18,324 nucleotides of DNA from a virus (lineage: Duplodnaviria; Heunggongvirae; Uroviricota; Caudoviricetes): the IMG/VR virus record IMGVR_UViG_2703718873_000025. The stretch is one strand, 5' to 3'. Shown here piece after piece: positions 3,001-6,000 of this stretch. A program made the position numbers. Position 1 is the first letter of the stretch. Each line of letters begins with the position of its first letter.

Positions 3001-6000
3001 AAGCGTTCCATAAACATCCCGTAGGCATGGCCCGGTGCCAGTGGCATCACGTTGAACATCTCTGTTGCCGGGATACCTTCCAGTACTGGCCAGAAAGAGC
3101 CATCATCAAGCCCGAGATCGCGGCGTTCGGTTGCCAGCATGATGAGATCGGCATATTTCACAGGCGTGCTCATAACCGGGGGTAACCCGTATTTCTCACG
3201 GATTACGGCGTCTATTTTTTCTTCCATCCGTTTATAGTCAGGAAGAAGGCGTTTCAGTGGAGCGGGAATATCCTGGCAATACGCTTCTGTTGCATCATGC
3301 ATTAACGCTTCAAAAGCAAATTCCTGCGGCACCAGCTGGCTGCAAAGCACCGCATGCTGGGCGACACTGTAGAAGTGTGAAAGATGTCCTGCAAAGCGAC
3401 AGATATTTGAAAGGGAAACTGCGATATCGTTAATCACGATGTCGTCTTTATTTATCCTGTCATAATAAAAATGCTTCCCGGAAAAAGTTTTAATAAATGA
3501 CATTTCGTTCTCCACTTTATATGCGCTGCACCGCGTTGAATTCTGCTAAAAGGAAGCTCTCACCATCCGGTGATTATTGAGTTAATTACGTTTCCATAAA
3601 TGCCCCCGCAGGGGCATTTGCAGTAATGAAATCAGGCGGTGAAAGTACCAATAAAGGTTTCTACTTTGCTGTCTTTGAATTTCTCAACAAGCAGATCACG
3701 AAATTCGTTAGCCATTTCTTCCTGCACCGCTTCCAGCTGAATAATGCGCAGAACCAGTACAGGACGATCGCCAGTGATAATGCTGAGGCGTAATTTAAAC
3801 GGACGTTCTTTCAGGCCTTCAAACGGAACGCATTTAAATTCAAATGCCACTGGCATAATGTCTTTGGTTTTCGCTTCGACAGACTCCATCAGAGAGCGTT
3901 TGCCGCTGAAGTCATTGTCTTCAAAATCAGCGGTCTGGTTTGCTTCAATTGTGATTTTACGGACTGCCGCAGCCGCTTTGGTTGCCTGAATGGTGTCACC
4001 ATTAGCATCAAAGCCCACAAGGTAGTCGGCCCAGTCTTCAATCCATTCTGCCAGTGACTTCTGGGAGTTACGCTCGCCATTAACAGACAGCAGGGCAGAG
4101 AACGGTGCTGTCTTTTTCAGTTTGAGAGTGGCGGTGTTATCTGCGTGACCTGGTTCATCAATAGTACCTAGGTTAAGCACACTGACGGCTCGCATATTAT
4201 CGGCATCGATAAAGCAGCGGGTGCCTTCATCTGCAAGATCTTTAGAATAACGGGTAAAGTCATCGATGCTGGCAGTGGAAAGCGCACCACGGAAACGGAA
4301 GCGATTTAAATTAAATTTTTCCAGATCATGAATGCGGAAATTCTCAGGCAATGCCACAGCATCGGCACCAATCTTACTGATAATTTCATTAACACCCTGA
4401 GCAGAAATAAGGGCATGGATTTGATTAATTGCGGTTGCGTCTAAGTTCTGAGACATAATAAGTCCTCACTATATTAAGATATTCAGTGATGAGATAAATA
4501 ATCAGTTAATTAAGAACGATATTAATGACCTGCTGCGCGGAGTTTTCCGTCAGGCTCACCGGCAAGAGTCAGTAATTGTCCCTGGTCTTCCTGCAGAATA
4601 GTCAGGCGACCACCGCGATTGACATACATCGGCGTTTCGGTGGTGTCTTCTTCGGAAATTTTCCCGCGGTTAGTCGGGCGAACATATGAGAGTTTGTGTT
4701 TGATTTTCACACGGTTCTCATCAAACGGTTCGATTTCCAGGTTGAGCGAGACCTTACCTTTGGTTTTCGTGTTCATCACACCGGAAGCGACTTCACTGAG
4801 AACTGCGCCGATTTTTGTTTCAAATACGCCGCCGTCCAGCTCCCCGATAAATGCCTGCACATCAGTACTGCGTTCGCTAGCCATTTTGTTGCTCCTCATC
4901 ATATCGACCCTGCAAGGTCGGTTGGTTTCTCCACAAAACAGAGAAGAACACCTGCGGTGGCAGCCGCCCGGATGGATTGGGTTATGAGCCCGTCGTCCGG
5001 TGATGCTCTTCTCTGTTTTGTAAAAAGAGCGGTACCAGCCGGAAGCAAGTGTACAAACTGGTACTGCCAAAGCAGTGGCTGTTGTGGTGACCGGTGCTGA
5101 TCTCCGGCTTGCGGTTATTTCAGACTCTCACGGGCGTTTGATTGCCCCGCCGAACAGCTCTTTTCCGCAATAGCTGCAATGTCTTTCGCGCATCAGCCTG
5201 CGCATTCACCACAACGCTGAGAGCATTGCCGGTGTCCGAATCGAACGGACCTTTTCCCTGCCCAACCCTCCCATCTGAATGGGACTGTCTGGAATTGAAC
5301 CAGCACTTATGCCTTGCTCGTCAATGCTCTCATCGTTGCGTCCTGGTCTCTTCCCAGGCGTCAAACCGAATCGCCACGCTGGTTAGGCGTCTTATCAGCA
5401 TCCTCATTGACTTGCACATTCCGGCTACCTGGTTTGTTTGCCCGAGCAAGGAGTGGATTGTCCCCTTTAACGTCCCCAGACCGCTAACGACGCATGTGCC
5501 ATACGCCGTGTTACAACCAAATTTTGTTAGGACCTTGTTTGTTGGTCTGGAAAGAAAGATAAAATGAAATTGCGCATTATGCAAGTGTTTTTGTTGCGAG
5601 ATGCGCAATATGATGGGTGATGAAAAGCCACCTTCTGGTGGCTAATTGATGAGGAGGTCGGGGTTAATTGTGTCGCTTAAGGGTTTGTGACTGACTGATT
5701 AAGACCTTCCCAAAGACCATAAACCGGTGTTCGTTTTCGCTGGTAATTCCCCATTCACGGTAAATCTGGTTATCAGAAATCACCAGTAGTTTGTCAGGTA
5801 TCATTTGCAGTCGTTTGACATAAATTTTATCATCAAAACCAAACACATAGATACCATCCCCATCAAACTGATTGATACTGATATCAACGAAGATGAGATC
5901 TCCTGGCTCAATGGTTGGACACATACTGTCCCCACGAACGTTGATAACTTTAATGTGATTGGCTGGTCGTCCTCCAAACATCGATACAGCATTATCAGTT

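Follow-up and report, generated by a model that had tools for sequence, protein, structure and literature searches.

A mosaic of minus-strand RNA modules, with a probable STnc100-type small RNA, in the early-left interval of an Stx2a prophage

In phage lambda, nutL and gene N lie directly downstream of the early-left promoter PL. The put element of HK022 lies close to its promoter, within a lambdoid early operon without N, and consists of two adjacent stem-loops. In the Qin prophage, the small RNA DicF lies in an untranslated part of the repressor-controlled dicB operon and is freed from it by processing. Phage T4 carries the stable species 1 and species 2 RNAs (rnaC and rnaD) within its transfer RNA (tRNA) cluster, co-oriented with the tRNAs and with partial tRNA features (a T-arm and acceptor-like ends). 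Here we examine the interval that follows the predicted PL in a Shiga-toxin-converting (Stx2a) lambdoid prophage, IMG/VR virus record IMGVR_UViG_2703718873_000025 (18,324 nt; the whole stretch is called the window below, and all positions refer to it). An earlier note had described this interval as a leader without open reading frames (ORFs), for which it considered a put-like antiterminator, an attenuator, a trans-acting small RNA, a decayed gene or an attachment-site remnant.

We find that, instead of a single leader, the interval comprises four minus-strand RNA modules arranged as a mosaic: E, H0-1, B with a terminator-like hairpin, and A. The modules are swapped independently among phages, and base pairing in E, B and A is kept by compensatory changes. 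The interval is neither a degenerate gene nor a substitute for N. We put at roughly 0.6 the probability that, as its sequence suggests, it is a leftward, PL-driven array of non-coding RNAs, one of them an STnc100-type small RNA with a terminator that at the same time acts as attenuator for the early-left genes.

Amongst described RNAs, the comparison that matters most for module B is with STnc100, whose function is unclear (PMC12370729), and with PasD, a Hfq-dependent prophage small RNA related to STnc100 and reported in a 2026 preprint (PMC13192938). The same preprint describes PasA as an 84-nt small RNA ended by a terminator, and places the Pas genes in phage-like operons by structural and lysis genes (PMC13192938). 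PasA, PasB and PasC were rejected as identities for the modules of the interval.

A mosaic of four RNA modules

The distance from the cI-like gene to the start of the YfdP-like gene is 780 bases, and the gene-free stretch after PL is 660 bases. As the earlier note had held, the interval has only mechanical ORFs, and RefSeq annotation over it is blank in the 25 best-matching genomes listed. In CFT073, the Prokaryotic Genome Annotation Pipeline (PGAP) calls a 'hypothetical protein, frameshifted' pseudogene over module A (locus L337, 1515-1824), in all likelihood a structured RNA that was mistaken for a broken gene. The minus strand folds with z = -4.5 relative to shuffled sequences (-3.1 for the plus strand), and an inverted-repeat search recovered three long-range repeats in addition to the perfect 15-bp repeat that the note had pointed out. 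An Rfam search, as the note had proposed, matched no family in the interval either at the gathering score or at E up to 10, and gave no tRNA match there. ARAGORN, in both default and relaxed modes, accepted no module as a tRNA, the relaxed calls being implausible, and a literature search returned no paper containing the conserved strings of the modules. E and the H0 hairpins are absent from Rfam 15 and were not found by the literature search.

BLAST searches against E. coli genomes and phages returned different relatives for different stretches, all oriented so that the minus strand of the window is the RNA strand. Positions 5522-5345 are related to P1, P7 and D6, where the homologous stretch lies between a tRNA or tciB and the next gene, and to epsilon15-like phages; 5432-5209 to Salmonella phage SPN9TCW; and 5216-5080 to a P1 isolate, just downstream of tRNA-Asn and tRNA-Thr, with 97.8% identity. 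A stretch of 40 nt (about 5228-5188) is shared with HK620 and with Klebsiella, Erwinia and Cronobacter phages, and 5069-4885 with SfV, SfIV and >2000 E. coli genomes. The modules are common to P1, epsilon15-like, P22-like and virulent phages, and the module search also matched SfV and cdtI. The single leader envisaged earlier is thus a set of autonomous modules shared with unrelated phages. Their strong conservation and compensatory changes in those phages contradict a decayed gene or an attachment-site remnant; the broader proposal of a non-coding interval that works at the RNA level is supported.

Module B and its relation to STnc100 and PasD

Module B (5077-5218, minus strand) has a tRNA-like core. 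In order, this comprises a 7-bp acceptor-like closing stem (5207-5213 with 5083-5089), an AAU linker, a 5-bp hairpin H2 (GCGCA-GGCUGA-UGCGC, 5188-5203), a variable insert, and a 5-bp hairpin H3 (GCCGG-AGAUCAGCA-CCGGU, 5090-5108) that directly adjoins the 3' strand of that stem. The motif was noticed by visual comparison of HK620, a Klebsiella Ackermannvirus, P1, P7, D6 and Tyrion, where the ends are conserved and the middle is unrelated. The 5' and 3' cores were each found in at least 120 viral contigs, the inserts spanning 1-171 nt, and from one phage to another the entire variable domain is substituted. In an alignment of 63 diverse cores, 93% of the cells were paired and 15 pairs had changed on both sides, and none of 500 shuffles matched this on any measure. 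The closing stem has exactly seven covarying pairs, the two outer positions being mostly unpaired. The H2 and H3 loops are complementary (GCUGA and UCAGC) and nearly invariant, with one double change amongst the 63 cores.

The 12-bp ruler of a tRNA, a 7-bp acceptor stem with a 5-bp stem abutting it without a linker, is present in B. As in the tRNA-like domain of transfer-messenger RNA (tmRNA), the ends of B form an acceptor-like stem and a large insertion replaces the anticodon arm; like that domain and the t-elements of plant mitochondria, B is a tRNA-like fold within a longer transcript. Unlike them, it has neither a T-loop nor a D-loop consensus, its loops being GGCUGA and AGAUCAGCA, and no conserved CCA end, NCCA following the stem in 19 of 180 copies. 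With these features missing and with cloverleaf recognition failing, we rejected B as a genuine tRNA. The tmRNA-type matches that we saw were sub-threshold and lay upstream of B at other loci: permuted tmRNA scored 22-26 bits (gathering score, 47) some 160-320 nt upstream of B at three unrelated loci (L030, 958-1012; L042, 1003-1110 on the minus strand; L005, 1195-1345), and their recurrence hints at one more tRNA-like module in such arrays. A hammerhead or hepatitis delta virus (HDV)-like ribozyme, prompted by a CUGAUG string and a pseudoknot, was also rejected on inspection: the UG lies in a covarying stem, A9 is a C and the order of the helices does not fit.

The resemblance to tRNA extends to the genomic surroundings of B. 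In SPN9TCW and phiV10, a tRNA-Arg(UCU) occupies the slot of B, flanked 5' by AGUGCUCUCAGCGUU and 3' by CCA-R-AAUCACGCC, and the same flanks enclose B at other loci. Genes for tRNA lie within 600-700 nt of B at 14 of the 120 viral loci listed, all on the same strand, and at 16 of the 120 genomic loci listed, 14 of them on the same strand; several begin right at the 3' end of B, and several of the neighbours are initiator-type. The scaffold can also enclose tRNA sequences, since the variable domain holds a complete tRNA-Pro(CGG) in one IMG/VR contig (L125, ~527-775) and a D-arm plus a T-arm in another locus (L089). The species 1 and 2 RNAs of T4 are analogous to B; their identity with it was rejected, as they are unrelated in sequence and model: R1, a covariance model that we built from the B cores, had no match in the T4 tRNA region (L228), and inspection showed no common core. 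They are also not in an early-operon leader, unlike B.

B keeps no fixed company. The ORFs downstream of it fall into 129 unrelated clusters, in contexts that include after cI, after Q and before a holin or small terminase gene, and it is found inside tRNA arrays and in virulent phages. The nearest long downstream ORF is co-oriented with B in 180 of 251 loci. Amongst the matches listed, an exact 21-mer of the core occurs in contigs from up to 120 species genomes, 105 of them with the full motif, from Gamma-, Beta- and Alphaproteobacteria and a few other phyla. About a sixth of complete E. coli genomes carry a B variant, none of them annotated amongst the matches listed.

B is followed, before module A, by a GC-rich terminator-like hairpin, GGCAGUACCAG ... 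CUGGUACCGCU with a U5 tract (5022-5068, minus strand). In 56 of 63 distinct contexts, B is followed by a terminator-like hairpin whose stems covary and whose U run has five or more residues; the copy in the window was missed by a simple scan because its loop is 19 nt. The hairpin and U5 likely form the 3' end of a small RNA of the B type and, lying before the first gene, likely also attenuate its transcription.

In a search with R1, the copy in the window scored 48.6 bits and P1 copies were also found, the second copy in the P1 record AF234172 (L001) at 25.1 bits. R1 also matched the PL-leader elements of ST64B and SfII, at 24-25 bits (E ~1e-5), and the same stretches are sub-threshold STnc100 matches of 35-39 bits (Rfam gathering score, 47). 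The second P1 copy is likewise detected by both models. In SfII, Rfam aligns the hairpin and U run that follow to the STnc100 terminator. The window itself contains a canonical STnc100 (15757-15965, plus strand, 183.6 bits), downstream of the stx genes in the late operon, so the same prophage carries both STnc100 and a divergent B-type relative. Its parts follow one another as in B: the closing stem GCAUGAUG/CAUCAUGC leads through AAU to a 5-bp hairpin whose loop has 6 nt; after a variable middle comes a 5-bp CCGGG hairpin directly against the stem, and a spacer then separates this from the terminator. STnc100 and PasD share with B a closing stem of 7-8 bp starting ...UGGUG, the AAU linker, the 5-bp hairpin with a 6-nt loop, the variable middle, a 5-bp CCGG-type hairpin abutting the stem, the spacer and the intrinsic terminator, and likewise are prophage-borne, in operon leaders or late regions and near tRNA genes. 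They differ in the loops (GGCUGA and AGAUCAGCA in B; UGUGCG and AGGCA in STnc100), in range, with B copies found far beyond the Gammaproteobacteria, and in position, the B unit lying in the early-left leader and canonical STnc100 downstream of Q and stx.

Comparison of sequence and fold therefore makes it likely that B and its terminator are related to the STnc100/PasD superfamily, and B is likely a divergent and far more widespread branch of this fold, placed here in the early-left leader beside E and the H0 hairpins. Several observations weigh against this relationship and against the array reading that includes it. The Rfam STnc100 model had no match in 4400-6000 even at E up to 10, and R1 gave the canonical STnc100 only 2.5 bits; since the extreme members do not detect each other, the link rests on the intermediates and on architecture, and the resemblance could be convergence. 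The contact between the H2 and H3 loops is nearly invariant, so that covariation hardly tests it. The terminator-like hairpin in the window has an unusually long loop, 19 nt, and one mismatch. The position of PL was deduced from operator-like repeats and a weak pair of hexamers, which match the consensus at 7 of 12 positions and were not flagged by the promoter scan. Finally, processing by RNase III and RNase P, as considered below, is pure inference.

Some further loci with B-type elements are of interest in their own right. The P1 ban operon (L001, AF234172) has two, at 3773-3881 and 3490-3620 on the minus strand, in line with a dicF-like region, tRNAs and E; DicF itself is a short, simple antisense RNA without a tRNA-like fold and has no sequence relation to the modules. 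The first of the two P1 elements overlaps the annotated upl and plp on the opposite strand, so these two ORF annotations may be spurious. In phage D6 (L008, 352-438), a 'tRNA-Ser' not called by tRNAscan is annotated on the opposite strand directly after the 3' end of B; the P7 equivalent (L007, 365-449) matches tRNA-Sec on the strand of B, at 46.6 bits against a threshold of 47. The D6/P7 element is tRNA-like with a long arm, and its annotated strand in D6 may be wrong. Further downstream in the P7 ban operon, after B and the tRNA-like element, there is a sub-threshold STnc100 match (L007, 562-677, 43 bits), so that B-type and STnc100-type units can share one array. In HK620 (L004, ~1501-1605), the annotated late leader has a B element between qut and the late terminator tQ, so that the long late leader of this P22-like phage is one more carrier of the RNA.

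Element E, the H0-type hairpins and the surrounding prophage

Element E (5335-5528, minus strand), a pseudoknotted RNA recognized from homologues and covariation, starts about 25-40 nt beyond the predicted start of PL transcription. Homologues are present in P1, P7, D6, epsilon15-like phages and mEp390, and its invariant 19-mer (5411-5429) was found in at least 120 viral contigs. E stands at the start of transcription units: in this prophage and in mEp390 it comes after cI and the operator region, and in phiV10, SPN9TCW, Tyrion, PAT1 and BUCT711 after a divergent promoter region. In P1 and P7, it lies between tRNA-Ile and ban, directly upstream of ban. When 30 diverse representatives were aligned, 97.6% of the cells were paired and none of 500 shuffles reached the covariation score. 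The fold has a hairpin, helix P1 (5488-5508), with the invariant loop GGCACAU (5494-5500), a helix that closes a variable domain, and two further hairpins; helix P4 lies at 5364-5384, and the P5 hairpin, with a GAAGAGA loop, at 5342-5358. The GGCACAU loop can pair with AUGUGC, which lies 70-90 nt downstream within the 19-mer; both partners are invariant, and covariation cannot support this pairing. Any given reading frame is open in at most 10 of the 30 homologues, and the spacings between invariant blocks take every remainder modulo 3, so E is not coding; the conserved protein-coding frame that the earlier note had named as a possible refutation was not found. Of 5426 complete E. coli genomes, 1832 carry E, and none of the matches listed has an annotation there.

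E resembles the put element of HK022 in being promoter-proximal in a lambdoid early operon without N and upstream of a terminator-like hairpin. It differs in architecture, being ~190 nt long with a pseudoknot and four helices, and in also occurring in non-lambdoid phages and in other contexts. The best blastn hit to HK022 25000-30100, which covers its PL and PR regions, had E = 0.14. With no sequence similarity and a different fold, membership of the put family, as the earlier note had entertained, was rejected.

H0-1 (5212-5338, minus strand) is a long hairpin found by the inverted-repeat search and in the minimum-energy fold. Its arms (5322-5338 and 5212-5228) form 17 bp with one mismatch, the 5' strand being the tail of E and the 3' strand the 5' flank of B. 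The stem precedes B at many loci, covarying in divergent members by inspection, and also precedes the tRNA-Arg of SPN9TCW. Its tip is a 93-nt cassette (5229-5321) with a middle hairpin (5269-5284) and two T-arm-like hairpins, CTGGTTCAATTCCAG (5289-5303) and GTCCGTTCGATTCGGAC (5234-5250); the cassette is found only in phages of the type of the window and in SPN9TCW, close relatives having ~40 nt there. Both T-arm-like motifs had been noticed before, the first at its correct place and the second 11 nt away, at 5223-5239. T-arm-like hairpins also occur at H0 tips and inside B inserts of other loci, and the significance attached to them earlier holds in that the region is built of tRNA-related modules.

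Module A (4933-5021, minus strand) is the second H0-type hairpin, identified by the inverted-repeat search and covariation. It has a long stem (4999-5021 with 4933-4952), a second arm (4954-4967) and an apex arm containing a conserved 22-mer, CGACGGGCUCAUAACCCAAUCC (4974-4995). The 15-bp inverted repeat of the earlier note is real, with its arms at 4933-4947 and 5007-5021, that is, displaced by 1 and 2 nt from the 4934-4948 and 5009-5023 first given; the repeat extends to 25 nt with 84% complementarity. None of 1000 dinucleotide shuffles had a perfect repeat of at least 15 bp, the maximum being 12. The repeat in the window is unusually perfect because a G-C pair replaces a mismatch that is conserved in most relatives. 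An 18-bp stem and the apical arm are kept in 14 diverse homologues, with 94% of the cells paired, seven pairs changed on both sides and none of 500 shuffles matching. The exact 22-mer was found in at least 120 viral contigs. A run of 14 nt within the apex (CGGGCUCAUAACCC) is identical to the initiator-tRNA anticodon arm of E. coli, the three G-C pairs included; the initiator-tRNA sequence was verified in all 5426 E. coli genomes. The apex motif is also found in H0 hairpins upstream of B and after tRNA-Arg at other loci.

Whichever gene comes first in the early-left operon, module A closely precedes its ribosome-binding site, and in this the interval resembles the lambda N leader, with nutL and an RNase III site, where a long perfect stem has the same place. 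The flanking sequences that form long stems enclosing RNA modules also recall the processing stalks of ribosomal RNA. Unlike the lambda leader, the interval has no N-like ORF and no conserved boxA or boxB. Two strings resembling the lambda boxA, UGCUCUUU in the 5' flank of B and CGCUCUUUUUACAA before module A (~5035-5022), were rejected, as they are not conserved in divergent members; at these strings only the pairing or the U run is conserved amongst them.

Between module A and the first gene (4885-4932, minus strand), sequence and homologue alignment show a conserved GGAGAAAC (4925-4932), a small hairpin (4905-4920) and the Shine-Dalgarno sequence of that gene. The first early-left gene is YfdP-like (4522-4884, minus strand, PHROG assignment; Shine-Dalgarno AGGAG), and genes for YfdQ-like and YfdR-like proteins follow leftward (PHROG 204, 210 and 318 for the three). 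The order cI, ~800-1000 nt without genes, yfdP/sb37 and yfdQ is shared by ST64B and phiNP, and SfII and F1055 have comparably long unannotated or sparsely annotated intervals at the same place. On the other side of the interval, the predicted PL (minus strand, read by eye) comprises a -35 TTGCAT (5579-5584) and, after 17 bp, a -10 TATCTT (5556-5561); operator-like inverted repeats at 5564-5584 and 5594-5614 were found by the inverted-repeat search within 5556-5614. The cI-like repressor gene (5664-6356, minus strand) is followed by the terminator hairpin of the cI transcript, read from the sequence as AGCCACC-agaa-GGTGGC with UUUU (5623-5643, minus strand); the equivalent site in SfII carries a rho-independent terminator annotation.

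The rest of the window is that of a lambdoid prophage, with Cro- and cII-like genes read rightward and a Q-like antiterminator gene (13275-14027) upstream of two tRNA-Arg genes, stxA and the STnc100 RNA. The tRNA-Arg genes (14176-14342, plus strand, ARAGORN), with anticodons UCG and UCU, are flanked by the Q-like gene and stxA and have no adjoining B, E or anticodon-like motif, each of these motifs being single-copy in the window. Matches to isrK (61 bits) and C4 antisense RNA (81 bits) stand in tandem at 7615-7803 (plus strand), inside a mechanical ORF (7255-8403) whose product matches Rha/Ant-type regulators. This region looks like a P1/P7-type immI (c4-ant) module inside a lambdoid prophage.

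A possible mechanism and what it would mean

In the array that we propose, PL would drive a transcript through E, H0-1 and B in turn, with E, adjoining the promoter, as a leader element. Much of this transcription would end at the hairpin and U5 near 5022 and yield the STnc100-type small RNA: B, the hairpin and U5 would form one unit of ~197 nt whose own terminator makes its 3' end, with the conserved tRNA-like core as the scaffold and the variable domain as the part that differs between phages. Because the unit has its own terminator, that terminator would also limit transcription into yfdP-yfdQ-yfdR; read-through would pass module A and allow these genes to be expressed. The H0-type stems (17 bp and at least 18 bp) would be sites of the RNase III kind that separate the modules from each other and from the messenger RNA, and RNase P could plausibly cut at the 5' edge of B. 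Of the options raised before, a trans-acting small RNA thus fits the B unit, which resembles an STnc100/PasD-type small-RNA gene, and an attenuator fits the hairpin ahead of the first gene.

The alternative that survives best, a possible one to which we give clearly less weight, is a purely cis-acting leader in which no module acts in trans. E would modify RNA polymerase, as put does, or otherwise permit read-through of the terminator-like hairpin, and module A would serve as a translational operator under the control of RNase III, after the manner of the lambda N leader. The position of E by a promoter or at the head of units in this prophage, mEp390 and the epsilon15-like phages, and upstream of ban in P1, fits such a leader, as do the terminator-like hairpin between E and the first gene, the constant place of A before the ribosome-binding site and the lack of an N-like gene in the interval. 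It is harder to reconcile with the lack of similarity to the HK022 put region, with an apex motif of A that also occurs in hairpins before B or after a tRNA without a gene downstream, and with epsilon15-like phages, where E heads a unit of just a tRNA and one small gene. B, upstream of 129 unrelated ORF clusters, in tRNA arrays and in virulent phages, better fits an autonomous RNA gene. A cis-acting leader is therefore possible mainly for E and A, and leaves the independence of B from its neighbours unexplained.

Enteric VapC toxins cleave the anticodon arm of the initiator tRNA, and phage tRNAs can counter defences that target tRNA. The modules might thus be a battery of tRNA mimics made from the early promoter, which titrates or decoys host enzymes acting on tRNA, e.g. 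VapC-type toxins or anticodon nucleases; B would be an acceptor/T-arm-like minihelix, accompanied by the T-arm hairpins and by the apex of A as a mimic of the initiator-tRNA anticodon arm. We consider this unlikely. The 7+5-bp stack of B and its occupation of a tRNA slot are in keeping with mimicry, as are the identity of CGGGCUCAUAACCC to the initiator arm within a 22-mer of at least 120 viral contigs, the recurrence of T-arm-like hairpins at H0 tips and in B inserts (one insert holding a whole tRNA-Pro), and the adjoining genuine tRNA genes, several of them initiator-type. However, B lacks the T- and D-loop consensus and mostly the NCCA end (19 of 180 copies), no module is accepted by tRNA finders, the anticodon-like hairpin has conserved flanks (GAC..., ...AAUCCA) unlike those in tRNA, and the likeness could stem from descent from tRNA cassettes instead of mimicry.

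That the modules are decayed tRNA genes, scars of cassette-exchange recombination or selfish mobile DNA without a function for the phage is very improbable. The mosaic composition with its abrupt boundaries, the tRNA-like fragments and common cassette flanks, and the presence or absence of a 97-nt cassette amongst close relatives would suit such an origin. However, the exact 21-nt B core in up to 120 listed species genomes of Gamma-, Beta- and Alphaproteobacteria, the compensatory changes that keep every tested helix and the bias in orientation relative to transcription together indicate purifying selection on RNA rather than decay. Missed small proteins, encoded by ORFs 5142-5567 (plus) or 5330-5608 (minus) or by a YfdP extended N-terminally to 5070, can be dismissed for practical purposes: such mechanical ORFs exist and some phage records annotate hypothetical proteins over parts of the interval, but frames in E are open in at most 10 of 30 homologues with indels of lengths not divisible by three, phages differ in the entire variable domain of B, PGAP is blank over the interval in the best matches listed and reads module A of CFT073 as a frameshifted pseudogene, and the YfdP-like start at 4884 has a strong Shine-Dalgarno sequence.

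Returning to the proposed array, a bolder and rather doubtful extension is that phages of many families carry widespread tRNA-mimicking scaffold RNAs, built from the B/STnc100 fold and H0 hairpins, in which the core engages the host tRNA machinery and the insert is a phage-specific payload. With H0 tips that are T-arm-like or like the initiator-tRNA anticodon arm, the targets could conceivably be RNase P or tRNA-directed toxins and nucleases. If so, the early-left 'leader' would serve the phage, ahead of any protein synthesis, as a PL-driven battery of RNAs for host takeover or anti-defence.

About one complete E. coli genome in three carries E and about one in six a B variant, most copies lying in prophages and P1-type plasmids; both are unannotated in all matches listed, and neither belongs to an Rfam family. 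If the link between B and STnc100 is true, the 'gammaproteobacterial small RNA' STnc100 would be one branch of a much wider phage RNA family, and a family with a tRNA-like scaffold and a swappable insert would offer a concrete structural hypothesis. In the lambdoid phages without N that we examined, ST64B, SfII, phiNP and this Stx2a prophage, PL is predicted to yield first several hundred nucleotides of structured RNA ending at a terminator, and the array thus bears on the control of early-left genes in Shiga-toxin prophages.

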